This document shows positions 1,490-53,540 of a stretch of 64,000 nucleotides of DNA, in pieces. Under the pieces are notes generated by a model. It saw nothing but the letters and a program-made list of their open reading frames with translations. It made no database searches and was not told where the DNA came from. The first letter of the stretch is position 1; each line of letters opens with the position of its first letter. Origin of the DNA: Carcharhinus amblyrhynchos (lineage: Eukaryota); the NCBI GenBank assembly GCA_965287045.1, contig OZ336894.1:14942001-15006000 (forward strand), written 5' to 3'. A program made the position numbers and the translations under genes.

Positions 1490-2850
1490 GTTAAGCCTTG
1501 CAGTTACAAAAGAACATTGTGTTTTGCCACTGGATTCCTCCAGATGCAGCATGGCATTAATTGCAGCCACCTGACCATTCAAAGCACCAAAATGCATCTA
1601 GCCCCTGAATGTTCAACTGGTCCCCAATCACAATTACAGATTCCTTTGTGTATGCTCGTATTCCCAAAAGCTGCCATGTTTCCTTCATCCTCTGCCAGAC
1701 CACAACCCTTCACTCAATTCCTCAAACATTATGGATAGATTGTTGTGGCAAAAAGTATCCCATGAATGGATGGCTACTCATTCATCTGCAATAACCTGAG
1801 ACACAGGCTGAGGTGATACTACCAAAACCGTTTGGAGGACAATCATTAAGAATGCCATGAGGCCTCTGTAAATGTGGCTCCAGAGCTTGGACTAGGCAGG
1901 TGGAACCCTGTAATACGCTTGTGGAATGGTCTTGCACATGGTGGTGATCTTCTGCATTCTGTATGATGTGGCCTCCAATGTGTGGATTTTGGGAGAGTGA
2001 GACCCTGGAACGATACAATTCATTGAAGGAGCAGGACCTGGAAGTGGAGACACAAGAAGAATGCAGAACAGTAAGGTCCCTCACTTCACAGGAAGATAGT
2101 CAGGCCAGATGCAAAGTAATCATCTAATTCATATCTCTGACTCCAGATGAACAGCATGGCATGAAACTTGCTGAGTTGCTTGTGCTAACATTTCACTGCA
2201 GACGCTTACTGCCAATGAAGGATGTGTATCTGCCTAGAGGTTACCATAGATGTGCCCTTGCTTGCCTTCACCACTTTATGTCTCCGATGTCATTTAATAA
2301 AGAGGTTAATGTGCCTGACTTAGTGCTTGTATTTACTTGTGTTCATAAAGAAAATATATGCACAGTTATAGGTAGAAGATGCCCCAAAGACTTACTCAGT
2401 GCTGTATCCAAATCAGTAGCCAACATACCTGGTCATTCCCATGCGATGCTTGTGACTTCAAAGTTGATGGAGCATTCTCACTTGTCTCTGCCCGAGGCTG
2501 AGATGTATGTGGCGGTAGTACCCTCATTGGAGGTATTGATGGGGGCACCTCCAGAGGCTCACTTGCCCTCTACCATCCGAGGAGCCAAGAAGGCCAATAA
2601 CGAGGATGCATCTCAGGGGAGGCACCCTCATCCTCTTCTACCCTTATGCATTGCTCTGGATGCCCGGAGGGGAGCATCAAATAAGACGCAACTGGCATTC
2701 CCTCTGGACGTCCCTGTGCCATCTGCGCCCCTGACTGATCAAGGCCACATAGTGGCTTTCTGTGGACATCAGTGCAAAGTTCCTGCAGGCATTCTAGTGC
2801 TATTGCTTTCCTTGTGATTTCCTGCACAATCGATGGAAGCTTACCTGCTC
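1490..2850 (+). mobile_element. PIF/Harbinger DNA transposon relic (HARBI1-like transposase ~1490-2000; downstream part probably the companion gene region)
   Basis: Decayed motifs GFLQMQHGINCSHLTIQS (~GFPQVQGAIDCTHVAIKA), VYARIPKSCHVSFIL (~VCARYPGSCHDSFIL), GKKYPMNGWLL (~GDKGYPLxxWLM) and LDxAGGTLxY...VVIFCIL. Confidence 0.7.
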
Positions 2851-3185
2851 AAATCCCTGAGCTAAGCTAGTCAATTTGATTTGCATACCCTCCATTATCA
2901 GCCCATGACCCTGCACGGCTTTGGAGAACTTTGAAATCTGGGCATACATCTGCAGTTGGTCTAGGTTGAACCTTTTCTCTTGGGGCCTGGCATCTGTATT
3001 GAGTTAAGTAAAGCTGCTTTGTACCCTCTATCCCTGCAAGGGATTGTTCATAATTGCCTGTGCCTCTGGCACCCCTCTTTGCACACTAATACTCAGCTTC
3101 TGATTCAATGCTACCATGCCTCACCATGTGTGAGGATACACTGTGGTCACTATATCTGTGCTGTGCAGGCTGTACTTATATGGTG

Positions 3186-4005
3186 TGTTATGATCTCAAT
3201 CCAAACAGTAATGTGTGTTTATTTCTTTTAGAATCCAAAAACTCAGGTATTTCCTAAAGGAATGAAGAGCTAGTTTAAATCAAAAGAATTTTATTAAACA
3301 AAAATTTAAAAAATGAATATTCATAACCACACTTTAGCTTTAATGGTCAGTCAAGTTAATGATATCATACAATGAACAGTAACTGATTTGCTGAACCAAA
3401 CTTACAAATTAATTCTCCTTTCTTTCTCTACCCAATCTCATTTTTTATACATGCAACCCAAAACTAATGTCAATAATCACTTGGTCTGGGTGCTGCTTTG
3501 AAGATTTGTATAAGGTTGAGATTTTTTGGCCTTTGTTTCCTTCTGCCAAGATTTTACCTCCAACAATGCCATGCTTGTCAGCTCCCAGTTCAACACCTGC
3601 CTCTTAAATGTAACCAGCTTGGGTCAGACCCCTCCTGATTCTAATATCCTTTCACTTTGGAGTCTTGCATCTTGATCATGTATGTTCCTTCTCTGAAGTA
3701 TGTCACTGCTATTCAGTTAATAACCAGTTAACTTTTTTAGTCTTCACACACCAAATTTCAAATGAACTCTGCTGGAAGCAGATGTCCTTGCTTTGGAGTC
3801 AGGTTGTCTAAACTCAGAAGATCTGCTTGAACCAGAACATCTCTGTCTCAAACTGCTCACTCGTATAATTAACTTGTTGACCCCTTTGCTGTTCTATTGT
3901 TCATCTCCCTGGCAACTTGTTCACATGATCAGTTAGTGGAAGAAAGATGTTTCATGAGAAGACATTTTGTGGAAAATTCTAATTGTTAAAGGGACCAACA
4001 CCCCC
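3186..4005 (-). mobile_element. Probable solo LTR (Gypsy-type)
   Basis: Begins TGTTATGATC; the far end TAAAGGGACCAACA resembles the reverse complement of the LTR starts at 35816 and 60807. Confidence 0.35.
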
Positions 4006-4027: not shown

Positions 4028-5672
4028 TATGGCATCAAGGACCCCTAGTGAAACTGAAGTCAATGGGAGTTGGAAAATTCTCTCCTGGTTGGAGTCCTAC
4101 TTGACACAAAGGAAGATGGTTGTAGTGATTGAAAGTCAATCATCTCAGTTCCAGCACGTTGCTACAGGAGTTCCTCAGGATAGTATCCTCAGCCCAAACA
4201 TCAGTGATCTTCCTTCCAGAGGTGGGAATGTTTGCTGATAACTGCACAATGTTCAGCATCATTTATGACGACTCAGATTTTGAAGCAGTTCAGGCTAAAA
4301 TGCAGCAAAATCTGGCCAGTATGAAGGCAATGTGTGGCACTAATGACCATCACCAAAAATAGTGGACCTAACTATCTTGACATTCAATTACATTACCATT
4401 GCTGAATCCCCCACCATCAACATCCTGGAGGATACCACTGACTAAAAACTGAACTGGACTAGCCATGTGAATACTGTGTCTATAAGAGCAGGTCAGAGGC
4501 TAGAAATCCTGCAGTGAATAATTTACCACTTGACCGTCAAAAGTCTGTTCACCATCTATGAGGCTGAAGTCAGGGGTGTGACAGAATTCTCACCACATGC
4601 CTGGATGAGTGAGCTCCAACTGCACTCAAGAAACTAGACACCATCCAGGACAAAGCAGCCTACCTGGGAGACAGTTGCTGGGAGTCATGGTCTCTGGAGC
4701 CAAAAAAGAAAGACAAGACTCAAGTGGCTGTGGAAAGGGCCCAGAGGAGATGGAGGTCAGCGAGTCGTGCATTGTTTCAGCCCACTACTTCCCCTACATC
4801 AAAAGAGGTTGCCATGTCAGAGTGGTGCTCCTGAGCCATAATAAGCGAGGCTTAATACAGAGTTGACCTCCATAGTGCAGAATATTGTTTTATGAGAAAG
4901 GAAGCTATACTGGATGTTGGTGAGACCACGTTTGGAATATTGTGTGCAGTTCTGGTTGCGTCACTATAAGAAGGATGTGGAAGCGTTGGAGAGTGCAGAG
5001 GAGATGTACCAGGATGCTGCCTGGTTTGGAGGGTAGGTCTTATGAGGAAAGGTTGAGAGAGCTGGGGCTTTTCTCTTTTGGAGTGAAGGAGGACGAGAGG
5101 CGACTTCATAGAGGTTTCTAAGATGATGAGAGGGATTGATAGAGTGGACGTGCAGAGACTATTTCTTTGGGTGGATGTAGCTGTTACAATAGTACGGGGA
5201 ATAACTATAAGGTTCACAGTGGGAGATATGGGAGGGATGTCCGAGGCAGATTCTTCACTCAGTGGTTGGGGTGTGGAATAGACTGCCTTCTGTGATAGTG
5301 GAGTCGGGCACTTTAGGAACTTTCAAGTGGTTATTGGATAGGCACATGGAGCACGCCAGATTTATAGGGAGTGGGATAGCTTGATCTTGGGATTAGACAT
5401 AGCTCGGCACAACATTGAGGGCCAAAAGGCCTATATTGTGCTGTAATGTTCTAAGTTGCTATCTGCGAACATTCAATCCCTCTTCCACTGGTGAACAGTG
5501 GCAGCATTGTGCACCATCTACAAGATGCACTGCAGGAACTCACCAACGTTCATTAGGCAGCACGTTACAAACCCATGACCACTACCGTCAGGAAGGAGAA
5601 GAGTAACACGCGCCTGGGAACTCCATCATTTGAAGGTTCCCTTCCAATTTACCCACCATCCTGACTTGGAGA
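4028..5672 (+). mobile_element. CR1-group LINE family B, RT plus 3' region, interrupted at ~4666-5462
   Basis: WLESYLTQRKMVVV..GVPQDSIL, MFADNCT, and KAEVRGVTEFSPHAWM...KKLDTIQDKAA; the 3' part resumes at ~5463. Confidence 0.8.
4895..5455 (+). mobile_element. CR1/HER1 LINE 3' fragment
   Basis: LVRPRLEYCVQFW...YKKDVEALE, RGDFIEVSKMMRGIDRVD; 3' tail GGCCAAAAGGCCTATATTGTGCTGTAATGTTCTA. Confidence 0.85.
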
Positions 5673-9767: not shown

Positions 9768-9905
9768 AGATCTTGTGGCACAGTGGTAACATCTCCACTG
9801 TTCGATCAGAAGCTTTGGATTCAAGTCCAAGGCAAGGACTTGTTGGCCATGGAAAGAAAGTTAATAATGTGGTTCAATGGGCTGATAACCAGATCGTGAA
9901 TCATT
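9768..9905 (+). mobile_element. tRNA-derived SINE head (non-HE1)
   Basis: A-box TGGCACAGTGG and B-box-like GGATTCAAGTCC at tRNA-like spacing. Confidence 0.5.
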
Positions 9906-11107
9906 TCACCACACCTCCACCCCTCTCTCCAGCATTCCCCAAAGGGAAAAAATGTGAGTTTGAAGATATGTGGGGGGAAAAAATGCATCTCTGCAGTTTC
10001 CTAGTTTCCCAAGTTTGAACCTATTTTGCTGGCTAGCCCTGCATTTATTGCACACCCCTTGTTAGCCTGAAGAAGATTGTTGTAAGGTGTCCCCTTGAAC
10101 TGCTGCATCCAGATGAAGCAGGTAGAGAGGAAGTTCCAGGATTTTGATCCAGCGACAGTGAAGGAACATTGATATATTTCCGAGCGAGGGTGGTAAGTGA
10201 CTTGGAGGGGAACTTTAGCTGGTGGTGTTCCTATGTATTTGCTGCCCTTGTTCTCCTAGATGGTTGTGGTCATGGATTTGGAAACTGCTGTCGAATGAGG
10301 CCTTGGTGAGTTCCTGCATTGCATCTGGTTAATAGTACACATTATGATGTGCGTCAGTGGTGGATGGAGCAAAAATTTATGGGTAGTATGCTTATCAAGT
10401 GGGCTTCTTATGTTGTGGAGCTGCACTCATCCAGGCAAGGGGAGGATATTTTATCACACTCCTGATTAGTGCCTTGTAGATTGTGGACAGATGTTGGGGA
10501 ATCAGGAGATGAGTTACTTATTGAAGGACTTGCTCTTGTAGTCACAGTGTTTATATGGCCAGTGTAGTTCAGTTGGTAATCCCCAGGATGTTGATAGTGG
10601 AGGATTCAGTGACAGTGAATGTCAAGTGGTGTTGGTTAGATTCCCATGTTGCAGATGTTCAGTCTGCCGCTTGTGTAGTGTGAATGTTACTTGCCACCTG
10701 TCAGCCCAAGTCTGAATATTATCCAGGTCTTGCTGCATTCTGACTTGGACTGCTTTAGTATCTGAGGAGTCGTGAATTGTACTGAACATTATGTAATCAT
10801 CAGCAAACATCCCCACTTCTCTTATGATGGAAGAAAAGTCATCAATGAAGTAGCTGAAGATGGTGGGCCTGGAACACTACTCTGAGGAACTCCTGCAACG
10901 ATAACATGGAACTGAGATAACTGACTTCCAATAATCATAACCATCTACATTTGTGCTATGTATGTCTTCAAGTAGTAGAGAGTTGTTCCCCCATATTCCC
11001 ATTGACTCCCAGTTTCGCTAAGCGCTCTTGATGTCGTACACGGTTGAGTCTCACCTCGCCTCACCTCTGGTCCTGGTGGAACCCAATCAAAACATCAGTG
11101 AATAGGT

Positions 11108-11240
11108 AAAGGTAGAATACTACAGATTTCTGGAATCTGAAACAAAATCAGAAAATGCTGGAAAATGTCAGCAGGTCTGACAGCATCCGTGGACAGAATA
11201 GAGCCTGTTTAGAGCCTGGATGATCCTTCGTCAGAACTGG
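11108..11240 (-). mobile_element. Penelope-like terminal fragment nested in the family-B LINE, with decayed hammerhead-like core
   Basis: Minus strand reads GTTCTGACGAAGGATCATCCAGGCTCTAAAC (CUGAnGA...GAAA-like) followed by GATGCTGTCAGACCTGCTGA..TTTTCCAGCATTTTCTG. Confidence 0.55.
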
Positions 11241-12031
11241 ATGAGTAGGTTATTGCCAAGTTACTGCCACTTGATAGCACTATTGATGACACTGCCATCA
11301 CTTTACCGATGATTGAGAATAGACTGATGGACTAGCAGGGTTTAATATGTCTTGCTTTTTGTGTACAGGGCTGCTGGGTACATGACAGTGTTATAGCTGT
11401 ATTGGGAGAGCTTGGTTAGGCCAATGCCTTCAGCCATTTTTTGATATCGCCTGAAGTGAATATAATTGACCGAAGATTGACCTGTGATGTTGGGGACTTC
11501 AGGAGGAGACCAAATGGATCTTCCACTTGACATTCCTGGATACAGATTGTAGCAAATGCCTCATCTTTTGTACCGATATAGTGGGCTCCCCCATCATAAT
11601 GGATGGGTATATTTGTGGAGTTGCAGTGTTTTTAATTGTCTACCACCATTCGTAGCTGGATGTGGCAGGAATGGTGAGCTTAGATCTGATGTGTTTATTG
11701 TGGAATCACTTAGCTCTATCACTTGCTGCTTGTACTGCTTGGCACAGAAGTTGTTCTGTGTAGTAGTTTCATTAGGTTGACGCCTCATTTTTAGGTATGC
11801 CTGATGTTGCTGCAGCCATGCACTTTTCAGTGAATCAGGATTGATCTTTCTGACTTAGTGTAATGGTAGAGTGGGGGATATGCTGGGCCATGAAGTACAT
11901 TTCTGCTACTGGTGTTGGCCCACAGTCCCTCATGGTTGCCCAGTCTTGAGTTACTAGATCTGTTTGAAATATATCTGATTTAGCACAGCAGGATGAAGAG
12001 TATCCTCAATGTAACGTTGGGACTTGTCTCA

Positions 12032-12362
12032 GAGAAACTCTACAGTGCAGAAGGAGGCCATTTGGCCCATCGTGTCTGCACCGACCACAATCCCATCCGG
12101 GCCCTACCCCCATATCCCTACATATTTACCTGCTAGCCCCTCTAACCTACGCATCCCAGGACACTAAGGGGCAATTTTAGCATGGCCAGTTCGTCTAACA
12201 CACACATTTTTGGACTGTGGGAGGAAACCGGAACGCCCAGAGGAAATCCAAGCAGACACGAGAATGTGCAAATTCCACACAGGCTGTGACCCAAGCCGGG
12301 AATCGAACCCAGGTCCCTGGAGCTGTGAAGCAGCAGTGCTAACCACTTTGCTCCCATGCTGC
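12032..12362 (-). mobile_element. HE1 (V-SINE) nested in the family-B LINE
   Basis: GTGGTTAGCACTGCTGCTTCACAGCTCCAGGGACCTGGGTTCGATTCCCGGCTTGGG head, V-domain and CR1 tail. Confidence 0.92.
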
Positions 12363-13159
12363 CCACTGGAAGGATTCTGCAGTAGTCAGCTGCAACTGCG
12401 GCAGGCAGTTTGGTGAGGTTGAAGTCAAGTGTGTTTTTTCTCCTTGTTAATTCCCTCACTATTTTGTGCAAATCCATTCTAAGATTTGGCCAATGTGATC
12501 AGTAGTGGCCACTCTTGAGCATTGAAGTCCCTCACCCAGAGTACATCCTACACTGAGTGGTATGATACCATGTGTATGATTATGTCAGGCTGGTGATTGA
12601 TTAGTTTGAGAGACAGCTCTCCAAATTGTGACAAGCCGCTGGATGTTTGCAAGGTAGACATTGCAAGTCTGGATTTGCCATTGTCATTTCCTGTGCCTAG
12701 GTCAATATCGGGTCGTTGGTCCGGTTTTATTCCTGTGAGACGTTTTAGCGGTCTGATACAACTGTGTGGCGTTCAATCATTAGTTGTGCCATTCAATCAT
12801 TAGTTGTGCCACCAGAGGGCATTTAAGAGTCACATCTAGGCCAGATCAGATAAGGACGGCAGATTTTTTCCCCTAAAAGACAATCAAGATTAGTTTCATG
12901 GTTATCAGTAGACTTTTAATTCCTTTTTTTTTTACTGAACTCTAATTCCACTATCTTTTGTGGTGGGATTTAACCCAGAACATTATCCTGCCTGAGTGTC
13001 TGGATTAGGAGTTCAATACCACTATATGTCACTTGTTTATTCACGCTCCTTTCTAAAGGTTGTATAAATTGCGGAGGTGCTGACCACAGTCTTTGAATCC
13101 TTATGGATGATGCTGAGCCCTAGAGAGTTGCTAATACACTCTTGTTTACAAAAGGATAA

Positions 13160-14955
13160 ATCACAGAAACATAAAGCGCAGAGGAGGCCCTTCGGCCCAT
13201 TGAATCTGCACTGACACATTAAAAACAGCTGAATTCCCACCTAATCCCATCTGCCAGCACTTTACCAACAGCCTTCATTGTTATGATGTGCCAAGTGCAC
13301 CCATCACTACTACCCTCCCAAGTAGCACATTCCAGACTGTTGTCACCCTCTGGCTAAAAAGGGTTTTCCTCACATTCTCTCCCCCGCCCCCCCTCATGAC
13401 TTATCCTGCAACTAAGGGGGACAGCTGTTCCTTATCTACTCTGTCCATGTGTCTCATAATCTTGTACACCTTGATCAGGTTGCCCCCTCAGTCTTCTCTG
13501 CCTCAGTGAAAACAGTAAAACAACCCACACAACCTCTCTTTATAACTTCCATCCCAGGCAGCATCCTGGCAAATCTCCTCTGTATCCCCTCCAAAACAAC
13601 CATATCTTTCCTATAACTGCATACGGTACTTTAGCTGTGGCCTCATCAAAGTTCTATACAACTCCAACATGACTTCTCTACTTTTGTAATCTATGCCTCG
13701 ATTGATAAAGGCAACTGTCCCATATGCCTTATTCACCACTCTGCTGGCATGCGCTTCTGCTTTCAGAGATCTGTGGACAAACATGCCAAGGTTCCTTTGC
13801 TCCACAGAACTTCCTAGTGTCCTATAATTTATTGAGTACTTCCTTGTCAAATTACTCCTCCCAAGGTGTATTACTTCATACTTAGATTCCATCTGCCACT
13901 TAACTGCCATTTGACCATCCATCTTTATCTTCTTGTAGCCTGAGACACTTTGCCTCACTGTTATCTACCCATCCGATCTTCGCGTTATCCACAAATTTAC
14001 TAACCCTACCCCCCACTTTGTCATCAATGTCATTTATATAAATGACAAATAAGAGGGTCATCTGCAGACTTAATAACCATGTCTCCTATTTTCTCATGCA
14101 AATCATTAATATAAATGACAAACAAGAGGACCGGCACTGATCCCTGAGGCACACCGCTGGTCACAGGTCTTCAGTTTGAAAAATAATTCTCTACAACCAC
14201 CCTCCGCCTTTTGTCAAGAAGCCAATTTTGTATCCACTTAGGTACCTCACCCTGGATCCTAAGAGATTTAACCTTATGCAACAACCTACCATGCATTACC
14301 TTGTCAAAGGCCTTACTAAAGTCCATCTGCTCTCATGTACCTTCTTGGTTACCCCTTCAAAAAACTCAATCAAATTTGTGAGACATGATTTTCCACTCAC
14401 AAAGCCATGCTGACTGTCCCTAATCAGTCCTTAAGTCTAAGTGCCTGTCGATCCTGTCTCTCAAAATACCTTTGAACAATTTATTCACCACAGATGTGAG
14501 GCTCACTGGCCTGTAGTTCCCAGGCTTTCCCCTGCAGACCTTTTTAAACAAAGGCACAACATTTGCCATTCTCCAATCTTCAGGGACCTCACCTGTGGCT
14601 ATTGATGATTCAGATATCTTGGCTAGGGGACAGCAGTTTCTTCCCTAGCCTCCCTGGGATACACCATCAGGTCCCAGGGATTTATCTACCTTGATGTGCT
14701 TTAAGACTTCCAGCACCACCACCTCTGTAACATGTACACCCCTCAAGACATCACCTTTTATTTCCCCAAGTTCCCTAACATCCATGCTTTTTCTCAACAG
14801 TAAATACTGATGAGAAATATTCATTTAGAATCTCACCCATCTCTTGTGGATGACCTTTTTGATCCTCAAGAAACCCTATTCCCTCCCTTGTAACTCTTTT
14901 ACCCTTTTATGTATTTGTAGAAGCTCTTTGTATTCTCCTTTGCCTTATCTGCCAA
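13160..14955 (-). mobile_element. CR1/HER1 LINE, degraded (probably two joined segments)
   Basis: ORF 13611-13958 (VIHLGRSN...IDYKSREVMLELYRTLMRPQL), GVPQGSV at ~14140, and a 3' tail at 13160-13215. Confidence 0.85.
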
Positions 14956-16810: not shown

Positions 16811-17815
16811 AGGTGTTTGGGGAAAGAAAGGAAGATGAATGGAAGTACTAACTGTTGGAGAATATGGCTGTGCTAGAAAGAGGAATCAACGACAGAGGCT
16901 ATTTGGCTTAAGGTTTAAAAAAAAACAGAGGTAGACTTATTACTGGGTGAATTCGAAAGGCCATTAACTTGTTAATGATATGGAAAAACAAATCTGCAGG
17001 GCAAGTTAAAAAGTGCAAAAGCTATGAAGCACTTATAATGGGGACTTCAATGATCATAATATAGACTGGATTAGAATAGTAATAGTATAAAGGGCAGAGA
17101 TGAGGAAGACTTTTAATGTGTGTTCAGGAGAATTTTCTTGATCTATATTTTTCAATCTAGTGAAGAGACTTGATGGATCTGACTCTAGGTAACGAGGTAA
17201 CAATGAAGGAAATTCAGCACCAAATTGGAGAATGGGTCTCAGGTAAATTGGAATCAAAAATTATCTGGCAAAATGGTAAAGAAACAATGGTTCAGCTATA
17301 GTCGGAGTACATTGCAGTGAGGGGGAACGTCGACAAACAAAACCAGTGCTTCTCGGATGACCAACGAGATGGAGACAAAGATGAAGCCAAGAAAGGGTGT
17401 ATATAACAGATGTGAGGTTGATAATTCAAGTGAGAACCAGGCTGAAAACATACTCTGAGCCCACTCCACAACCTACAAACTGGTAACTCTTAATGGCACA
17501 CATCCTCGTGGCTTGCAAATTTCAACATCTGTAACCAGGTAACTAACCTGAGTGGAAAATCCCAGGTTTCAACTTTCTACCAAAAATCTGGATAATTTTC
17601 AGCTGCTTAAGAACAACGGGGAAGATGTGTGCTCCACAAGGGAACATGAGGAACAACTTGAATTGTGACTGTTATCAGCCAAGCCAGACCGTAGCCTAGA
17701 TGTTTAACTCCTGTCCTGAGAAATCTATCCCCGATGGTATCACGATCATTCACATTGTGTTAGTGGAAGCTGTTGAATGGATTGTTAACCTTCTCATTGA
17801 ACTACAAGTATTAAT

Positions 17816-20272
17816 CATAAGAACATAAGAAATAGGAGCAGGAGTAGGCCATCTAGCCCTTCGAGCCTGCCCCGCCATTCAATAAGATCATGGCTGATCT
17901 GTCGTGGCTCAGTTCCACATTCCCGCCCTCTCCCCATAACCCTTAATCCCCTCGCTTATCAAAAACCCATCAACCCGCGTCTTAAAAATATTTAGCGAGG
18001 TAGCCTCCACCACTTCAACGGGCAGAGAATTCCAGAGATTCACCACCCTTTGAGTGAAGAAGTTCCTCCTCAACTCCGTTCTAAACCGCCCCCCCCCCCC
18101 CCCCTTTATCTTGAGGCTGTGCCCCTTAGTCCTACTATCCTTTCTGAGCAGGAAGAGTATCTCCACCTCTATCCTATCCATCCCATTCATCATCTTATAT
18201 GTCTCAATGAGATCTCCCCTCATTCTTCTAAACTCTAACGAGTACAAGCCTAGTTTATTCAGCCTCTCCTCATAGTTCAACCCCCTCAACTCCAGCATCA
18301 GCCTAGTAAACCTCCTCTGCACTCCCTCCAAGGCCAAAATATCCTTGCGTAAGTACGGCGCCCAAAACTGCACACAGTACTCCAGCTGCGGCCTCACCAA
18401 TGCCCTATACAGCTGCAGCAAGACCTCCCTACTTTTATATTCAATCCCCCTCGCTATGAAGGCCAGCATCCCATTAGCCTTCCTGACCACCTGCTGCACC
18501 TGCAAGCTGGGTTTTTGCGACTCATGCACAAGGACCCCGAGGTCCCTCTGCACCGTCGCCTGCTGCAGTTTTTCACCACGTAAGTAATAGTCCTTCCTAC
18601 CATTATTCCTACCAAAGTGGACCACCTCGCACTTCCCAACATTAAATTCCATTTGCCATTTCCTGGCCCATTCGCCCAGCCTATCTAGATCCTTCTGTAG
18701 ACTCTCCACACCCTCTGCACAATTTGCCGTTCCACCAATCTTGGTGTCATCAGCAAATTTCGACACCCTACACTCGGTTCCCTCCTCCAGATCATCTATA
18801 TAAATGGTAAATAGCTGAGGCCCCAGCACCGACCCCTGAGGCACTCCACTAGTCACCATCCGCCAATCCGAATAGCACCCATTGACCCCCACTCTCTGCC
18901 TCCTATTTGACAACCAATCCTCTATCCACGCTAACACCCTACCCCCAACTCCATGTCTCCTGACCTTCTGCAATAACCTCTTGTGAGGTACCTTGTCAAA
19001 CGCCTTCTGAAAATCAAGAAAGACCACATCCACTGGCTCTCCTCTATCCACCGCCCTAGACACATCCTCATAGAACTCCAGTAAATTTGTCAGACACGAC
19101 TTCCCTTTAATGAAACCGCGCTGCGTCTGCTCTATGAAGGAGTTCCCCTCAAGATGCCTCGCTATTTCCTCCTTGATGACGGATTCTAACATTTTACCTA
19201 CAACAGACGTTAAACTAACCGGCCTATAATTCCCTGCCTTTTGCCTGCCACCCTTCTTAAACAACGGCGTAACATTAGCCGTTTTCCAATCTTCTGGCAC
19301 TTCCCTGGAATCCAGCGACGTCTGGAAACTAACCACCAAGGCATCCACTATCACCTCCGCCATTTCTTTCAAAACCCTTGGATGCATTCCATCCGGTCCT
19401 GGCGACTTGTCCACAATCAGCCCCTCCAGTCTGTCGAGCACTGCCTCTCTAGTAACAGTAATGTCATTAAGACCCTCCAGTCCTACCACCTTTCCATCTC
19501 TAACACCCGGCAAATTATTCACGTCCTCCTCCGTGAAGACAGAAACAAAAAAGTTATTCAAGACCTTAGCCATATCCCCATCCCCTACCACTAAGTCCCC
19601 CCTCCCATCCTCTAAGGGACCAACGTTCACCCTAGCCAGCCTCTTCCTTTTTATATATTTATAAAAACTCTTGCTATCCTTTTTTATATTAAGCGCTAGC
19701 CCAGCTTCACAGTTTCTCCTACCCTTCTTTATCAACTTCTTTGTCAATCTTTGTTGACATTTAAACCTCTCTGAATCCTCTTCTCACCCACTACTCTTAG
19801 CTACTCTAAACGCCTCCGCTTTTAATTTAACACGTTCCTTCACCTCCTTCGTTATCCACGGCTTATTACCTTTCCTCCTACTGTCCTTTCTGACCATCGG
19901 AATAAATTTCTGCTGAGCACCAAGAAAGATCTCCTTAAAGATCCTCCACTGCTCCTCAGCAGACCTACCTTCCAACGCGCTCCCCCAGTCCACATTCGCC
20001 AATTCTTCTCTCATCCTACCGTACTCCCCTCTGTTCAAACAAAGGACGCACGTCCGGGAACCCACTTTCTCCTCCTCCATCTGCACCAGAAACTCCTCCA
20101 TACAATGATCACTCTCCCCAAGAGGATCCTTCACGGCAAGGTCCCTAATTCTACCCGCCTCATTACATTGCACCAGATCCAAGATAGCTCGCTCCCTCGT
20201 CGGCTCCAACACACACTGTTCAAGGAAACTATCCCGGCAGCATTCCAAGAACAACTCCTCGAGCCCACCGCG
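17816..20272 (-). mobile_element. Young 5'-truncated CR1/HER1 LINE
   Basis: EN C-terminus (PTRERAILDL, LGESDH), full RT, 3' UTR stem GGCTCGAAGGGCTAGATGGCC and (TTCTTATG)2 tail; CpG-rich. Confidence 0.97.
17909..19747 (-). CDS. CR1 ORF2 reverse transcriptase, open for 612 codons; continues in frame upstream across one TGA at 19784-19786
   Basis: [77 protein letters not shown]. Confidence 0.92.
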   Translation of the reverse strand: MTKKLIKKGRRNCEAGLALNIKKDSKSFYKYIKRKRLARVNVGPLEDGRGDLVVGDGDMAKVLNNFFVSVFTEEDVNNLPGVRDGKVVGLEGLNDITVTREAVLDRLEGLIVDKSPGPDGMHPRVLKEMAEVIVDALVVSFQTSLDSREVPEDWKTANVTPLFKKGGRQKAGNYRPVSLTSVVGKMLESVIKEEIARHLEGNSFIEQTQRGFIKGKSCLTNLLEFYEDVSRAVDRGEPVDVVFLDFQKAFDKVPHKRLLQKVRRHGVGGRVLAWIEDWLSNRRQRVGVNGCYSDWRMVTSGVPQGSVLGPQLFTIYIDDLEEGTECRVSKFADDTKIGGTANCAEGVESLQKDLDRLGEWARKWQMEFNVGKCEVVHFGRNNGRKDYYLRGEKLQQATVQRDLGVLVHESQKPSLQVQQVVRKANGMLAFIARGIEYKSREVLLQLYRALVRPQLEYCVQFWAPYLRKDILALEGVQRRFTRLMLELRGLNYEERLNKLGLYSLEFRRMRGDLIETYKMMNGMDRIEVEILFLLRKDSRTKGHSLKIKGGGGGRFRTELRRNFFTQRVVNLWNSLPVEVVEATSLNIFKTRVDGFLISEGIKGYGERAGMWN

Positions 20273-26799: not shown

Positions 26800-27502
26800 T
26801 GAGGGGTCAGGAGAAATGACTGGCAGTGCCAAAGGAGGGTGGGGGTGTGTCTGTCTGTCGGGGGAGAAGACTGGGAGTGGGGGTGGGGAGGGTGTCGGGG
26901 ACGAAGACTGGGAGGGCGGGGGGTGGGGAGGATGTCGGGGTCGAAGACTGGGAGGGCGGGTGGGGTGAGGGTGTCGGGGAAGAAGACTGGGAGGGCGGGG
27001 GGGGGGGTGAGGAGGGTGTTGGGGGGAAATCTGGGGGGGGGGCGGCGAGGAGGGTGTTGGGGGGAAGTCTGGGAGGGTGTCGGGAGAGATGACAGGGAAT
27101 GCAGAGGATTGAGAAAGTTCAAGTATTGGTGGTGGGTTAATGTGAAGGCCTGACTGCCAATCAGGAGGGAGGGTGGATTGGAAGGTCACTGGTAGGTGAT
27201 GTTGGTGGAGGTGGAAAGATGTCAGACGGGGGAGGGGGCTGTGTGTCAGGAGAAGGCTGGGAGGAAGGGGGGGTAGGGTGTCAGGAGAAGGCTGGGAGGA
27301 CGGGGGGGGTAGGGTGTCGGGGAGAAGCCTGCTGGAAGGGCAGGGGGGAGGGTGTCAAGGGAGAGATGACAGAGTGCAAAGGATCGAGAAAGATTAGGTG
27401 TTGGTGATGGGTTAGTGTGAAAACGGTCTGACTGGCAATCAGGAGGAAGGGTGGATTGGAAGGTCACTGGTAGGTGATGTTAGCGGAGATGGAAAGATGT
27501 CA
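26800..27502. repeat. G-rich minisatellite (~32-bp unit GAAGACTGGGAGGGCGGGGGGTGGGGAGGGTGTCGGG) within a larger ~280-bp tandem duplication
   Basis: Unit visibly repeated at 26866-27080 and 27245-27358; block 27081-27223 recurs at 27359-27502. Confidence 0.85.
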
Positions 27503-29345: not shown

Positions 29346-30980
29346 TACTTATCTTCAGTAGACTACTACAGAAGTAAACAATGGGAATGTTGACGGAGAA
29401 TAATAAAGTGATGATACTTATGAGCGGCATAAAACTGTTTTCTGCTGAGTACATTTTGCAGCAGAAAATAAGTTATTTTCATCGCGATATATTACTGATT
29501 CTATTCAAATTCAATAGCTGTCTTGTCTTAAAAAGGTCAAGTAAAGTACATGTCATCTGGAAAAGTTACTAGCATTTTTCTCAACTGGCTAATAAGAGGA
29601 CAGCCATCAAACCTTTGTTATTTTATTTCACCAAAATAATTCCACAGGAAATAGATGTTAGAAAATTAATGCAATTTGTGCAGCAACTTTGAAAGGGAAA
29701 ATCAAATAATTACATCAGATCAAACTGATATATATTCAGTAAGCATGGAGATGCATACTTTTGGTTTTAATAAACATTAGAGAGCAGAAGTAGTATTTTT
29801 GCCCGAATATCAGTATCCCTGTAAGGTTAACTGAAGTTTAATGACGTGATTTTATGCCAGGATTGTGCTGGCCCAAACAAGAATATGCACCCCTTACAAA
29901 ATCATAGAGTTCTGAAATACTAGCCTGGGCTTTTTAAACTTGGGACTTTCCAATAAATCTGGGATGGATAGAGGTGCAAGCTATTAGTGATGCTATGTCT
30001 CCCACATCCTTGCATCCCTTCTCCCATTAACCAGCGTTGAATATGAATAGAAATTTGGGAATAATGTTCCGTACTGTTTCCTGCCATTTTCATTGAAACA
30101 CTGGGCAAAAAGGCTGCATGTTTGGCCTGGACATCTGCACGGTAAAACATTTTTTTTTGTAGGAACCAGAGCCCATGCAAACACCAATAGAACAAGGTAT
30201 TGTACAGGCAAAGAGGGCAAGACAATTTCTTTTTTAAACCCACTTTCCTGATTGCCTGGATTTCTATACCACAGCAGGCCTCTGGTGCCTTCACATCAGC
30301 ACTGCCGATGTATCAGTAGAGCTGGCAGAACTGATATTAGCATTCAAATTTTAGCCAAGGGAGCTGACAAGTGGAAATCCTAACCCACTTCTCTCACTGC
30401 TTGAAATGTGTCCCAATCATTGAGGAATTTGTAGAGATTAGGGGGAAAGCTTAGTGTGTAAAGTAGTTGTGGCGTGTACATTTCTACTACAAAATAGAAC
30501 CATAAAATCTACAGTTTTAAAAAAGATGTGTTGTTTGAAACAAGATATTTTTTGCCTTTCTACCTTTGAGCTGATGAATGAAGTCAAAGCAACTGGGTTG
30601 TAAAAGTAAGAATTATTTTTGGGCAATATTGTTAATTTACCTGAAATACCAACCAGTTAAAAGTTAAGGGGAAAAATGGATTTATTGCGCTTGGAACATA
30701 TGCTTATTTTTCATACTGTGTGATAGTTATTGCTTTCCTTGCAATTTGCTGACTGGTTTCTCTAATTCAGTTATTGACTGGTTTTACATTTAAAAAAAAA
30801 TTGTGGGATGTGGGCATTGCTGGCTAGGTCAGCATTCATTGTGAGAAGATGGAGGTGAGCTGTGTTCTTGAACCATGGTAGTCCATGCAGTGTAGATGTA
30901 CTCAGTGTTGTTAGAGGGAGATTAAGAATTGTGACCCAGTGACAATGAAGGAATGGCAGTAAGGTTTCCTCGTTGCGACG

Positions 30981-31806
30981 CACCACCATTGTGAGTTAGA
31001 TCTCGAACAATGACGAGACAGATTACAGGAATGAGAGAAGCTGGTGAACTGGTACAGCAACAATAATCTCTCCCTCAATGTCAACAAAATGAAGGAGATT
31101 GTGATTGACTTCAGGAAGCTTAATGGAGAACATGCCCCTATCTAGATCAATGGAGACGAAGTAAAAAAGGGTCAAGAGCTTCAAGTTTTTAGATGCCCAG
31201 ATCATCAACAACCTGTCCTGGTCCCCCCCATGCCGACACAATAGTCAGAAAGCCCACCAATGCCTCTAGTTTCTCAGAAGACTAAAGAAATTTGGCATGT
31301 CAGCTACGACTCTCACCAACTTTTATGTATGTACCATAGAAAGCGTTCTTTCTGGTTGTATCGCAATTTGGTATGGCTCCTGCTCTGACCAAGACTGCAA
31401 AGAACTACAAAAGATCATGAATGTAGCCCAATTTTTTATCCAAACCAGCTTCCCATCCATTAACTCTGTCTACATTTCCCACTGCCTTGGCAAAACAGCC
31501 AGCATTATTAAGGACCCCACGCATCCTGGACATTCTCTTCCCCCTTCTTCCATCGGGAAAAAGATAGAAAAGTCTGAGGCCATGTACCAACCGACTCAAA
31601 AACAGCTTCTTCCCTGGTGCTGTCAGACTTTTGAATGGACTTACCTTGCATTAAGTTGATGTTTGTCTACACCTTAGCTGACTGTAACACTACATTCTGC
31701 ATTCTCTCGTGTCCTCCTTTATGAATGGTATGCTATCTCTGTATAGCGCGCAAGAAACAATATTTTTCACTATGTTAATATGTGTGACAATAATAAATCA
31801 AATCCA
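30981..31806 (+). mobile_element. Rex1/Babar LINE, 5'-truncated
   Basis: ISNNDETDYRNE..NNNLSLNVNKMKEIVIDFRK, FKFL, TLTNFYVCTIESVLSGCIAIWYG, IIKDPTHPGH; tail GACAATAATAAATCAAATC. Confidence 0.88.
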
Positions 31807-32411
31807 GATAGTAGTCTTGGATTTAAAAGGAGCTGTAGATGTAGTCTTGGTGAGTTCCAGCAGTGCTTCTTGTAAATGGTACACAGTGCTGCCACTGTGG
31901 AGGGAGTGACTGTTTGTTTGTGGGTGGAGTACCAGTCAAGCAGACTGCTTTGTCCTGGATGGTTCTTGGGTGTTGGAGCTGCACCATTCAGGCAAATGAG
32001 AGAGTATTCAGTCACCTTCCAGACTTGTGCCCTGTAGATGGTGGCCAGGATCAGGAGGTGAGTTATTCAATGCCAGGATTCCTAGCCTCTGATCTGTTCT
32101 TATAGCCACAGTATTTATATGGTTAGTTCAGTTTCTGATTAATGGTGACCCTGAGAATGTTGATAGTGGGGGATTCAGCAAAGATAATATCACTGAATGT
32201 TGAGGTGTGATAGTAGGTTGTCTCTTGTTGGAGGTGGTCATTGTCTTGGATCTGTATGGCATGAATGTACTTGGCACTTGTCAGCCCAAGCCTGGCTATT
32301 ATCCAGGTCTTACTCCGCATGGACATGGACGTGGACTGGTTCAGTACCTGAGGAGTCATGAATGGTGCTGTACATCGTGCAGTCATCAACGAACATTCCC
32401 ACTTCTAACCT

Positions 32412-32833
32412 CATAAGAACATAAGAACTAGGAGCAGGAGTAGGCCATCTAGCCCTTCGAGCCTGCCCCGCCATTCAATAAGATCATGGCTGATCTGTCG
32501 TGGCTCAGTTCCACATTCCCGCCCTCTCCCCATAACCCTTAATCCCCTCGCTTACCAAACACCCATTAACCCGCGTCTTAAAAATATTTAGTGAGGCAAC
32601 CTCCACCACTTCAATGGGCAGAGAATTCCAGAGATTCACCACCCTTTGAGTGAAGAAGTTCCTCCTCAAGTCCGTTCTAAACCGCTCCCCCTTTATCTTG
32701 AGGCTGTGCCCCCTAGTCCTACTGTCCTTTCTGAGCGGGAAGAGTCTCTCCACCTCTATCCTATCCATCCCATTCATCATCTTATATGTCTCAATGAGAT
32801 CTCCCCTCGTTCTTCTAAACTCTAACGAGTACA
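32412..32833 (-). mobile_element. Young CR1 3' end, same subfamily as 17816-20272
   Basis: Near-identical to 17816-18245; splits the host LINE at CCCACTTCTAACCT|ATGATAGAAGGAAG (compare the uninterrupted host at 10811-10835). Confidence 0.95.
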
Positions 32834-33213
32834 ATGATAGAAGGAAGATCACGATGAACCAGCTGAAGATGTTTGGGCTTAGGACACCATCCTGATGAAT
32901 TCCTGTAGCAATGCCCTGGAACTGAGATGATTTACCTCCATCAACCATAACCATCTTTCTTTGTACTAAGTATGACTCCAACCAGTAGAGAGTTTGGCTC
33001 CGATTCCCATTGACTTTTGCTAGGGCTCCCAAATTTGGTCATGTACTGTCTTGATGTCAAAGGTATTTACTTTCTCCTCATTTCTGCTATTTAGCCTCTC
33101 TGCTGTGTTTGGACCAAGGCTGTACTGAGGTTAGGAACTGAATGGCCCTGCCAAATCCAAATTATGCACCAGCAGGTAATTGCTAATGAAGTGTTAATTG
33201 TTGCACTGTTGAT

Positions 33214-33512
33214 AGTGGCACAGTGGTTAGCATTGCTACCTCTCAATGCCAGTGGCCAAATTTGATTCCCGGCTTGGGTTATCATCTGTGTGGAATCTGC
33301 ACGTTCTCCCTGTGTCTGTGTGGGTTTCCTCTGGGTGCTCCGGTTTCCTCCCACAGTCTGAAAGATGTGCTGGTTAGATGCATTGTCCATACTAAAATCT
33401 CCCTCACTGTACCCTATCGGGCACCAGAGTGTGGTGACTAGGGGATTTTCACAGTAACTTCATTGCATTGTTAATGTAAGCCCACTTGTGACACTAGTAA
33501 ACTAAACTAAAC
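33214..33512 (+). mobile_element. HE1-like V-SINE with alternative (non-CR1) tail
   Basis: GTGGCACAGTGGTTAGCATTGC head and V-domain, then GACTAGGGGATTTTCACAGTAACTTCATTGC..GTAAGCCCACTTGTGACAC(TAAAC)n. Confidence 0.85.
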
Positions 33513-34113
33513 TTTCCATCACTTGCTGACGATTGAGAGTAGACTGAAGGAGTGGTAATTGGCTAGGTTGGATGTGTCCTACTTTTTGTGACAGGGCATG
33601 CCTGGGCAATTTCCCATGTGGACTGCAACTGTTCAAGAAGGCAGCTCACCACCACCAACATTTGAAAGTTGATTAGGGATGCGCAATTAAATGTTGGCCT
33701 GATCAATGAGACCCACATCCTGTGGAAAAAACAATTGCTGGTTAAGTACCACTGTTGTAGCTGTACTGGAACAATTTTGCTAGGGGGCATGGCAAGTTCT
33801 GAAGCACAAGCCTTATTGTAGGTACTATTGCTGGAATATTGTCAGGGCTTATTGTCTTGACACCAAGGGTACTGAACCCTATGATTTGAGGAAATACTAA
33901 GAATTGGAATTCTTGAAAATGGATATTCACCAATGCCATATGGATTGTTCCTTAGGATGTTAAAGGTGGTCAGGGAGCAAATGACAGATGCTCTGAGGAT
34001 TATTTTCCAATCTTCATGAGACACAGATGAGGTGCTGGACGACTGGAGGAATGCATATGTTGTTTTGTTGTTTGTAAAAAAAAGTATGATGGAAATGTCA
34101 AATAATTATAGGC

Positions 34114-36410: not shown

Positions 36411-36995
36411 TGAATCGAATTGGCTGAAGACTGGAATTTGGATGCTGGGCTTTTCTGGAGGAAGCTAAGATGGGTCACCCACTTGGCACTCCTGGCTGAA
36501 AATTGTCCCAAATGCTTCAGCCTTTTTTGCATTGTTGTGTTGGGCTCCCCCATCGTTGAGGATGGGGATATTTGTGGATCCTTTCTTTCCTAGTGAGTTT
36601 TTTAATGGTCCACAACTATTCACAACTGGATGTGGCAGGACTGCAGAATCTCTATCTGATCTGTTGATTGTGGGATTCCTTAGCTCTATCACAAGCTGCT
36701 GATGTTTGGCATGGTAGTCCTCCTGTTTTGTAGCTTCACCTAGTTGACACTTCATTTTTAAGTATGCTTGGTACTGATCTGGGCATAACAACCCCCCTTT
36801 CCCCCACTGTACCAGAGTTGAACCCCTGCTTTGATGGTAATTGTAGAATGGAAAATATACTGGCCAAATGAGCTTATGGTTGAGTACAATTCTGCTGCTA
36901 CTGATGGCCCACAGCGCCTCATGGGTACCCAGTCTTGACTTGCTAGATCATTTTGAAAGCTTTCCCATTTAACATGAGGGTGGTGTACGCAACAT
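36411..36995 (-). mobile_element. CR1-group LINE family B fragment (EN-RT linker)
   Basis: ORF 36465-36791 contains NIPILNDGGAQH..KAEAFGTIFSQECQV; homologous to 11450-12000. Confidence 0.75.
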
Positions 36996-37712
36996 GCTGC
37001 AGGGGTTTCCTGAATGTGAAAAAGTAGACATTACTACCTTTTATGGTGCATTTATATCTCATTCCAATGAAATTTTAATTCATTTTAGTTTCAGGTACAT
37101 TTTTAAAATATCGCCATTTGAGTTGCACTGTTGCACAAATCACCATTTACTGTCGGGAAATGAAAGAAACCTTTTCGCTTTATGTTTTCCATCTATGTAG
37201 ATGTATTTTGTAGTGAGTAGAAATTTCAAACGTTTTTGCTGGTTAACTAAATTTAACTACGAAGGGAAGTATTTACAACATGCTACTCTGCAATTATATC
37301 ACATGATTTTTTATATTGAATTAAAGGGCACACCCTCCCACAAATGTCATGTTTGCCAAAATAGTATAGCATTGAATAAAGTTAGATTATGGTTGAAGTT
37401 GGAATTACGAAATAAGACTGCTGGAAGTGAAGTCTGATGAATAAGGCCTTCCAAGGATACTGTATGCAAACAAATGATGAGATTTTGACTTCAGTTCCAT
37501 TATAACAATCTAATTTATGGAGCTAAAACTGTGAAATACTGAGTTTGAGTCACAAGTGTAATTTTGTTAGGCAAAATTTTGGTATTCATTGTGCTAAGGC
37601 TGTTAGGCCGCACAGTGGTGATTTTGTGGAATATGCAATGTTTCTCACTGCCTACTTTTAAAGAAAGCTTTGTGTTGAAGAGAATCAACATCTTGGATTT
37701 AGCTCTTCTAAA

Positions 37713-45705: not shown

Positions 45706-46486
45706 TGTGGGTGTACCTACAGTACTGTGGCCTACTAGTACATTGCTAAAGAATCATGTTCTCGAGGACAATTGGGGACGGGCAGTAAATGCTGGCTAAG
45801 CCAGCGACACCTACATTTCATGAACAAATACTGAAATATTCTAAAACACAGTGGAAGATCATTTCAGTCCCATGTTCTGCACAGTGATGTTACAACTAAG
45901 GATATTGGACTACAAGATGCTCAAGGATGATAAAACACAACTTCAAACTCAATTTCGACTTTAATACAAATGTAAGAATTAAAATTTTGATTTTGGGTGG
46001 AATAATTTCTTTGGGAATTAACACGTGTAAATTTGTTTGGGGTATATTCACTTGAGTTGATTGTCAGACCCGTTTGTACAAAAAAATTGGCCAGTCTAGA
46101 TGTTCTGCATGATGGCACAATTACATTAATTGCCATATATTTGTGTTAGCACAGATTTAATCAGTTCTTTTCAGAGGTTCATTAATAATTAGTTCTTGTT
46201 GTGAATTAAATAAAAAGCAAGGTAATTATTTGATGTGTATTGCTTACTTGAAGCCTTTTGAAATACTAATGGTAAATGTATTTGCCCGTAGCAATATTCC
46301 TTAAACAGGTGCTTATTCTATTCCGTATTCTCCATTTTAAAAGCATGTCCCACTTTTGTCTGGAATAGCTGTTAGTCTGTACGCTTTCCCATTGTCGACA
46401 GCTTATTCATCTTGTTATGGTGAAAGCTGTAATGTTGTCTGTAAGACGCTAGGCTATTGAATGCAGTCTCTTGAAAAACCTTTGGT

Positions 46487-49384: not shown

Positions 49385-51722
49385 TTCATGGGAGGCGAGT
49401 GTTATTGTCCATTTCTAATTGTCTTTGGGAAGCTGGTGGTGAAACATTCCCTGCTGCAGTTCATCTGCCGTAAGGGAGGATGTTCCAGGATTTTGACCCA
49501 GCGACAGCAATATAATTCCAAGTCAGGATGCTGTGTGGGGCTCGGAGGGTACCTTGCCAGTGTGGTGTTCCTTGCATCTGCTGTCTTTGTTCTTGATGGC
49601 CGAGGTTGAGGATTTGGAACACACTGCTGTCAATCTGGACAAGTGGTGGAGAGAATAAACATTTAGAGTGGATGATGGGTTGCCGTCAAGCAGGCTACTT
49701 TGTCCTGGATGGTGTTGAGCTTGTGTTGTTGAAGTTGCACTTATTGAGGCAAGTGGAGAATATTCCATCACACTCCTAATGTTCCTTGCAGGTGGTGGAC
49801 AGACTTTGTGGAATAGGAAATAAGTTAGTTGTTGGAGAATTCCTGGCCTCTGACCTGCTGTTCTGGCCACATTATTTACATGGCTAGTCCAGTTCAGTTC
49901 CTGATGAAAGGAAACTCCCCAGGATGTTGATGGTGGGAGAATCAATGTTGGTAATGCCGTTGAATGTTGAGGGGAGATGACTGGAATCTCTGCTGTTGGA
50001 TTTGGTCATTGTTTGACCCCTATGTGGCACAGATACTGCTTATCAGCCTTAGCCTGAACGTTGCCCAGATCTTGTTGCGCAAGGACACGGACTGCTTCAA
50101 TACCTGAGTAATTGTAGATGGATCTGAATACTGCAATATTTGCTTCTGACAATGTTGGAGCGAAGTAATTGAAGAGCAGCTGAAGGTGATTAAACCTAGT
50201 CCTGAGGAACTATTGCAGCAATGTTATATGACTCGGATCATATTGTAGAATCCTTACAGTGCAGAAGGAGACCATTCAGTCCATCAAGTCTGCATCGACT
50301 CTCCAACAGAGCACCTTACTCCGGACCAATCGCTGTAACCTCTCATATTTATCCCACTAATTCTCCTAATCTATGCATTTTGGGACATAAGGGACAATTT
50401 AGCAGCACCAATCCATCATTGACTTACAATTTTAAAAAAAGCATCACCATTTACCTCCTTGTCAATTATGAAATCCAATTGGTGGGGAGTATTACTCCTG
50501 GTTACCATTGACTTCATCTTTGCTAGAGCTTCTTGATGCCACACTCAGTTAAATGCTGCGTTGATGCTGAGGACATGTCACTTGCCTCTGGAATTGAGCT
50601 CTTTTGCTCATGTTTGGACCAAGGCTGTAATAGGATCCAGAACCAAGGAGCTCTGGTGGAACCCAAACTGAGCACTGATAAGCAGGTTGTTACTAAGTAA
50701 GTGCTGTTGATGCATTCCATCATTTGTCTGATAATTGAGAGTTGGGATGATAATTGCCTGGATTGGATTTGTCGTCCTTTTAGTGGACAGGACATGACTG
50801 GGCATTTTTTTGCATTGATAGTCTTGTAGCTGTACTGGAGCAGGTTGGCTGGAGATCAGCTGGTCCTGGAGCAGAAATCTCCATTAGTAAGCTGGGAAGT
50901 TATAAGAACCCATAGCTGTTGCTATAGCCAGTTCCTTCAGCTGTTCCATGACATCACGTGGAAAGAATTGAATTGGCTTAAGATTAGCCTCTTTTGATGC
51001 AGGGGACCTCAGTGGGAGGCTGAAATGAATCACTTGACACTTCTGACTGAATATGGTTGCAAGTGCATCAAGCCTTGTCTTTTGCACTTCGTCTGGGACC
51101 ACCTATCATTGAGGATGGGGATGTTTTTTATTGTTAATTGTTTAATTGGATCTCCAGTTTAGAACTACTAGGTTTGTTTTGAATCAGTCTCCCTCACACA
51201 GTGGTAGTACAAAACAGCACTCTGAAGGGGATCCCTATGTGAAGCTGGGGTTTTGTTTCCACAAGGACTACGCAATGGTCAATCCTACCAATACCGTCAA
51301 GGGCAGGTACATCTGTGATCGGTGGATGAAAATAAAATGTGAGTAGGAATAGACACCTAACCCCTCAAACCTACTCTGCCATTCAGTATGATCATTGCTA
51401 ACTGTCTGTCTGCCCACCATACCCCTTTTCTTCCCTGAGATTGATGAGGATGTGATCATGTGGGTTATTTTTTGTTGTTCTCTCACTACTTGCTTCAGGC
51501 CCAGATATGTCCCTCAGGACTCAGCCAGTTGAGTGAGCGGTAATGTCCCTGAGCCACTCTTGGCCATGGACATTGAAGTCCCACACCAGGAATACATTAT
51601 TTGCCCATTCTACCTGCACTACTGCTTTCAAGTGCTGTTCAACATGGTGAAGCACTGATTCATTGGCTGAGAGTACATTGTAATCAGTAGGAAGTTTCCT
51701 TGACCATGTTTGTACTGATTTC
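49385..51722 (-). mobile_element. CR1-group LINE family B, degraded, with HE1 fragment at ~50245-50415
   Basis: WDFNVHGQEWL (EN), LLISAQFGFHQ, IRSVMEYSPLA and 3' tail at ~49390-49440. Confidence 0.8.
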
Positions 51723-52910: not shown

Positions 52911-53540
52911 AATTCAACCTTTTACAATGCCAGCTATCCCACGGCACGCCTCTTTTGAATTGGTCTATCATTGAGGATAGTGTCAAATATTTTCCTAAAG
53001 TTAAGGCTAATGAAACCCCAATACTTATTCCACAATTGACGTAAGACTCTCAGATACGTTTAGCATTTTCTGCTTTTATTCCCAAATTTCTTTCCTACTC
53101 GGTTACCTTAAGCACACTGCCATACAGTTTACAATGTGTATTCTTTTACCTAATTTTCTGACTTTACAGTTGTGTGTTAAGTTTTATTTTCCATCATTCT
53201 GCTTTCAGATCCCTGTGGATTACAGCATATTATTTAGCATTATTGGCCAATTTTGTGCAATATGTAAACTTAGATACTGTAGACGTCACCCTGTTCTCAA
53301 AGTCAGTGTTATTTTTAAATGCAGATTCCTGTGAGACTCCACTGTCAACCAGTTGCTACTGACACTTCCCACGTACCATTATTCAGTGATGCATCAATTC
53401 AACCTTTTACAATGCCAGCTATCCCACGGCACGCCTCTTTTGAATTGGTCTATCATTGAGGATAGTGTCAAATATTTTCCTAAAGTTAAGGCTAATGAAA
53501 CCCCAATACTTATTCCACAATTGACGTAAGACTCTCAGAT
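52911..53540. repeat. Exact 145-bp direct repeat (52911-53055 = 53396-53540)
   Basis: AATTCAACCTTTTACAATGCC...GTAAGACTCTCAGAT is identical in both copies, separated by 340 bp. Confidence 0.95.

Follow-up and report, generated by a model that had tools for sequence, protein, structure and literature searches.

The 64-kb window studied here (the whole stretch analysed, positions 14,942,001 to 15,006,000 of contig OZ336894.1 of Carcharhinus amblyrhynchos) carries a single decayed long interspersed nuclear element (LINE), which lies on the minus strand between about 13035 and 10028. As judged from its sequence, this element is a dead representative of elasmobranch Zenon-1, a LINE of ~3.29 kb that has one open reading frame (ORF). 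Members of the family start with a tRNA-like head, are present across sharks and rays, and have lost from their sense strand the T-runs that resemble terminators of RNA polymerase III (Pol III). We propose that Pol III makes the full-length Zenon-1 RNA, a reading to which we assign a probability of about 0.65. LINEs are held to be units of RNA polymerase II (Pol II) and short interspersed nuclear elements (SINEs) units of Pol III (PMC10886601); a 3.3-kb coding LINE on a tRNA promoter would, if real, break this divide and be a source of a natural Pol III message.

Architecture and distribution of Zenon-1

The majority sequence of 26 young copies of the family is 3290 nt long and consists of the head (positions 1–95), a conserved body (to 317), one reading frame, a short tail and an A-run; full-length copies end in this A-run as a poly-A tail. 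The frame, which encodes an endonuclease and a reverse transcriptase (RT), both found by Pfam on natural copies, spans 979 codons in the majority. The only stop in it falls on a CpG site, which reads TGA in 11 copies and CGA in 10. The head contains a perfect A-box (11–21) and a perfect B-box (74–84). In an older majority, derived from 35 copies and projected on the young one, from which it differs at 221 of 3279 sites, an anticodon-like arm and a T arm are visible. By these boxes and arms, rather than by a covariance-model match, the head is judged to be tRNA-like.

The preliminary description of the window had read the element as a single-ORF LINE in which a SINE-type head was fused directly to the endonuclease–RT ORF, with no ORF1. 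To see how general this arrangement is, we searched the genome (2.92 Gb, 1520 contigs) and inspected the best hits of each query. With the head as a query, 27 of 29 other loci proved to be a short SINE with its own tail (26 by BLAST junction, one by eye), and the remaining two continued into the endonuclease. As the head thus mostly returned the SINE, the search was repeated from the LINE side. A mid-body query gave 11 of 29 other copies that keep the head or body together with the endonuclease start. An endonuclease-only query, which excludes all sequence common to the SINE, revealed head or body at most 90 nt upstream in 28 of 29 other loci; the 29 comprised 18 with the full head, one whose full head is interrupted by an insertion, nine truncated inside the head or body, and one with neither. 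Head or body also lay upstream in 10/10 further loci (in full in four) and, with a second query made from the window copy, in 28/29, 15 of which reached the A-box (five of these loci repeated earlier sets). No ORF1 was present at any of the loci from the endonuclease-only query. Ten loci with wrong-side flanks (L151–L160) were left out, as was L253, which looked like a duplicate. Of 61 copies, 35 reached the first 20 nt, and the flanks before the head were unrelated between copies; no clear target-site duplication was seen by eye in those flanks that could be placed.

The head is far commoner as a SINE, as the head query shows, and this could suggest that an unrelated SINE had come to lie beside the LINE by chance, or that an ORF1 had been deleted locally. 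We regard this as vanishingly improbable: the same junction, with no SINE tail or A-run between head and endonuclease, recurs in 28/29 and 10/10 loci, and the head stands in published consensuses of five species. No majority of headless copies, or of copies with an ORF1 upstream, emerged from these searches, and the single-ORF LINE with a SINE-type head is supported by the sequences.

Those published consensuses are of Zenon-1 from white shark (CarCar), whale shark (RhiTyp), catshark (ScyCan), spiny dogfish (SquAca) and stingray (HypSab), which start with the same head and body and are 3244–3314 nt long (Stuart et al. 2026, PMC13343379), as compared with 3290 nt here. The comparison, made by eye, covered the first 400 nt of each consensus, and a 13-nt motif was also matched exactly; on this basis we identify our family with the published elasmobranch Zenon-1. 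For stingray, the table of that paper gives intact ORFs as 3 of 612. Zenon elements are described as having a poly-A tail and no ORF1 (PMC13343379). The lack of ORF1, which had been taken as unusual for the group, is therefore the norm in Zenon, and the head alone is unusual. The main text of that paper has no match for 'tRNA' or 'polymerase III' and does not describe the head, the T-run loss, the missing AUG or the linked SINE of Zenon-1. A literature search, conducted outside Repbase, Dfam and most subscription journals, returned no paper in which shark Zenon is said to have a tRNA head or to be transcribed by Pol III. Zenon-1 is thus a known family with a trait so far undescribed within the literature searched, for which we found one loose precedent (RTE-1_DAn, see below). 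What is new here are the perfect boxes in the family majority, the T-run loss, the missing AUG and the linked SINE.

By eye, the A-box fits in all five species, with its free positions varying, and the B-box is perfect in three. Four exact B-box 11-mers occurred in only three rows of ~900 CR1-group consensus starts in the supplement of PMC13343379, all of them shark Zenon-1. The hagfish and coelacanth Zenon starts had, by eye, no such head and did contain T-runs, although the coelacanth start is of low confidence. A quick RT tree built from 103 rows, with no named Zenon among them, placed the family in a 28-row clade (Shimodaira–Hasegawa-like approximate likelihood ratio test, 99), apart from shark CR1. 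The traits of canonical vertebrate CR1 were absent, in that there is no esterase ORF1 and the RT lies outside the vertebrate CR1 clade of this quick tree. The best protein matches of the family were from whale shark and manta ray. One manta-ray gene model (P0001) has at its end a fragment of a Zenon RT with 77% identity, showing that rays too have the family and that it finds its way into gene annotation. Wider scans returned two distant metagenomic and two weak viral loci, none of which were used, and an atlas search returned generic endonuclease clusters.

An abundant SINE consists of the first 290–317 nt and the last 70 nt of the Zenon-1 LINE. Its 36 junctions that we compared fall into about three 5′ classes (near 290, 298 and 317) with one 3′ breakpoint (3220–3236). 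Independent origins were considered and are not claimed: given the common 3′ breakpoint, nested deletions within a single lineage suffice to explain the classes. By eye, the SINE copies L002–L030 have their own diagnostic head bases relative to the young LINE, indicating that the SINE amplified as a family of its own. The head may have passed from the SINE to the LINE, or the SINE may have been cut from the LINE; the latter would be a direct route by which a LINE yields a SINE, head included, by deletion. A reading of this SINE as SacSINE1 with a Deu domain was not supported. SacSINE1 and the DeuSINEs (PMC5499810) do resemble it as shark tRNA SINEs with a conserved body. The DeuSINE core given in the supplement of PMC7245038, however, is by eye unlike the SINE body, and its 10-nt core motif is absent even when one mismatch is allowed; this comparison concerns that printed core.

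Loss of terminator-like runs from the sense strand

The shortest Pol III terminators tested in PMC8466645 are TTTT and TVTTT, the latter being weaker, and TTT has a minor effect. The preliminary description had suggested looking for T-runs of four or more in the body of the element. In the family majority, the sense strand contains neither TTTT nor TVTTT, as against 15 and 17, respectively, on the antisense strand. Dinucleotide shuffles predict 4.5 such motifs on the sense strand (P 0.006). Runs of at least three T number five, as compared with 22 expected from base shuffles and 13 from dinucleotide shuffles (P 0.0005). Within the ORF there are 3 T3 runs; permutation of synonymous codons predicts 12.1, and none of 5000 permutations gave so low a number. 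Runs of A, C or G showed no depletion in the same test. Phenylalanine is encoded by TTT twice and by TTC 16 times. Six natural copies carry one T4 run each, versus ~6 expected, mostly at scattered places, and the older majority has no T4 and four T3 runs. These results show that the loss of terminator-like runs is strand- and base-specific.

As controls, we used other LINEs. A shark CR1 has 11 T4 runs in 2.2 kb and a TTT:TTC ratio of 19:8. None of 73 other LINE ORFs (from 80 loci, the other seven having no ORF of 450 codons) lacked T4, and their lowest T3 ratio was 0.69, versus 0.25 for Zenon-1. A relative from the same clade with the same T content (L301) has 19 T3 runs versus 16.2 expected, and is thus not depleted; it possesses an AUG and carries T5 and T6 runs in its 3′ untranslated region (UTR). 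As a separate observation, 73 of the 80 loci L293–L372 hold intact eukaryotic LINE ORFs of at least 450 codons in prokaryote genome bins, most likely as a result of host contamination.

Transcription and translation of Zenon-1

The simplest history is that an ancestral Zenon in the shark–ray lineage acquired the head, since the lepidopteran, hagfish and coelacanth Zenon starts are without it. Pol III would start ~10 nt before the A-box and read the whole element, and selection would have removed oligo-T from the coding strand. The protein would bind the tail and prime reverse transcription as in other CR1-group LINEs, and the SINE, keeping promoter and tail, would be mobilised by the Zenon-1 LINE. 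A weaker step is translation, which would use neither a cap nor an in-frame AUG and might proceed via the conserved body. The whole picture, of an autonomous coding retrotransposon transcribed by Pol III from end to end, translated from an uncapped RNA by non-AUG initiation, with its ORF recoded against terminators, persisting across sharks and rays and giving rise to a SINE by internal deletion, is tentative, and we put it somewhat below even odds.

Several observations weigh against this proposal. The loci examined were best hits and not a random sample. On four young copies the Rfam tRNA model gave no match, and only a weak match to the T arm of tmRNA appeared. The head has modest similarity to genomic tRNAs (z up to 4.3; 54 tRNA calls, 37 distinct, 12 types), with no clear parent, and the stingray consensus has a B-box one base short. 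T4 taken alone is not significantly depleted (0 versus 1.9 expected; dinucleotide shuffle P 0.10), and the old and young majorities cannot count as independent tests, as the former was projected on the latter and differs from it at few sites. L301 has only one T4 in its ORF and avoids TT at codon junctions almost as Zenon-1 does (T:C 2:21 versus 0:15), and the LINE ORF L369:3498-5531 has, at 29% T, one T4 versus 5.4 expected (P 0.012), with no B-box match upstream of the ORF. Two AATAAA motifs near the 3′ end are also compatible with Pol II. Finally, the 5′ region folds no better than its shuffles (z −1 to 0.2 over windows of 95–235 nt), which gives no support to an internal ribosome entry site (IRES).

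Some of these points would suit an ordinary Pol II LINE, in which the head is a captured relic or acts as a promoter for Pol II, and the avoidance of oligo-T has some other cause, such as splice or polyadenylation signals or a codon habit shared by the Zenon clade. The accepted view is that LINEs are all Pol II units (PMC10886601; PMC5786205), and the 3′ AATAAA and the partial TT avoidance in L301 agree with this. We nevertheless consider it unlikely. Across the five species the box positions are kept while the free positions vary; the depletion affects T alone and the sense strand alone, and Pol II-type controls do not show it; and AATAAA also occurs at +114, in the 5′ UTR.

Translation poses the question of how an uncapped RNA without an in-frame AUG is read. 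The frame has no in-frame AUG before the endonuclease, its first methionine being residue 182. Eleven AUGs lie upstream, one of them in frame but closed after 16 codons. The arginine-rich N-terminal extension is common to a database relative (P0012), which begins with methionine. An out-of-frame AUG at family position 349 (in the window, the region of 12688, where it is decayed) opens a frame of 36 codons overlapping the endonuclease start, and its offset is the same in the stingray consensus. For the 5′ region, folding into an IRES or a ribozyme was considered and set aside, as there was no consistent folding signal and no Rfam family; only in the young majority did two 120-nt 5′ windows stand out, at z −3.1 and −2.3. 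One pair in the acceptor-like stem looks compensatory but can be explained by CpG decay, and we make no claim for it. Parts of the coding region (family positions 481–600, 1261–1380 and 1501–1740) fold much better than shuffles, with z down to −4.8.

The labour could also be split, with Pol III making the template RNA and the protein coming from capped Pol II read-through of copies in host genes or introns and acting in trans on the tail. This would account equally well for the conservation of the head and the T-run loss; trans action on the tail is implied by the abundant SINE, 39% of whale shark Zenon-like sequence is intronic (bioRxiv 10.1101/443036), and the 5′ region lacks a folding signal. 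Still, initiation would be no easier to explain on a capped RNA, given the missing in-frame AUG and the 11 upstream AUGs, and we judge this alternative quite improbable.

Among known systems, the lepidopteran Zenon and Persaeus, a derivative of it with an internal deletion (PMC6740152), come close to Zenon-1: the LINE has a single ORF, and an abundant non-autonomous element is made of its 5′ and 3′ ends, so that Zenon does yield such derivatives. Persaeus, however, lacks both homology to tRNA and a Pol III promoter, and the lepidopteran 5′ ends look unrelated to the Zenon-1 head. In Kojima 2018 (PMC5786205), the only sources named for such two-part elements are RTE, Ingi, Vingi and R2. One sentence of the same paper, the only one in the literature searched to name it, says that RTE-1_DAn and elements related to it hold a tRNA-like sequence; they belong to another clade, and the position and function of that sequence are not given there. 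The tRNA-derived SINEs and TRIMp3 (Helenus, Ajax and Cassandra; PMC10886601) share with Zenon-1 an internal Pol III promoter derived from a small RNA but are all non-autonomous and non-coding. The proposed Zenon-1 transcript may also be set beside that of R2.

R2 is likewise a single-ORF LINE, and its RNA is not an ordinary capped Pol II message. It differs from the unit proposed for Zenon-1 in having no promoter of its own. Its RNA is transcribed together with rRNA and freed by a ribozyme (PMC5786205).

The window copy and its surroundings

The window copy is 67–77% identical to the family majority and groups with the older class of the family. Its parts are as follows.

12955–13035, minus strand: tRNA-like head with damaged A-box (13032–13018) and B-box (12976–12965), aligned to family positions 16–95
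12760–12954, minus strand: conserved 5′ body common to LINE and SINE, family positions 96–317, with small deletions
12654–12759, minus strand: ORF start, in the family an arginine-rich N-terminal extension with no in-frame AUG, here decayed
12387–12653, minus strand: APE endonuclease remnant, frameshifted; Pfam Exo_endo_phos matched on a sister copy
12033–12366, minus strand: later insertion of a different tRNA SINE, with many copies in the window and absent from intact Zenon-1 copies
11242–12030, minus strand: linker and start of the RT region, family positions 1062–2022
11050–11236, strand not assigned: short insertion of another repeat family (family D10)
10028–11047, minus strand: C-terminal part of the RT and 3′ tail, family positions 2155–3262 (RVT_1, E 1.6e-5), the last ~35 nt overlapping the tail common to the SINE

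We take the insertion at 12366–12033 to be of the V-SINE/HE1 type. The 5′ body contains a 20-nt tandem duplication (12811–12772), and at 12560/12559 the endonuclease has lost ~268 nt. This loss and the two insertions are not mentioned in the preliminary description.

The A-box-like and B-box-like strings reported earlier do lie in the head, where they align with the boxes that are perfect in the family majority. Both are damaged: each departs by more than one mismatch from the A-box or B-box consensus pattern, ARAGORN found no tRNA in the window, and Rfam gave no tRNA match in 9900–13400. Taken alone, these strings would be weak evidence. The endonuclease start had been placed ~380 bp from the head, and LANI indeed begins at 12653, 379 nt from 13032; the distance is ~440 nt in intact copies, and the window copy has the small deletions and the duplication noted above. 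The two strings cited for that start, LANIQRLV and GELSLKLINHQPDIII, stand in different reading frames. TRRKNTLD (reported as TRxxNTLD), the RT and a tail ending near 10028 are all present, whereas the 'GDFN' motif reads RDFN.

The 3′ end of a CR1 element upstream (~13160–13970) is an unrelated neighbour and not an ORF1. Other, headless Zenon-1 fragments occur in the window at 4030–4660, 5461–5670, 30803–33858, 36411–37020, 45759–45807 and 49466–51711. Two CR1 segments (17815–18247 and 32411–32834) are 95–96% identical and much younger than the Zenon copy. The window also contains a G-rich tandem array (26834–27313) with units of ~37–45 nt, and an exact 145-nt direct repeat (52911–53055 and 53396–53540) whose copies lie 485 nt apart.
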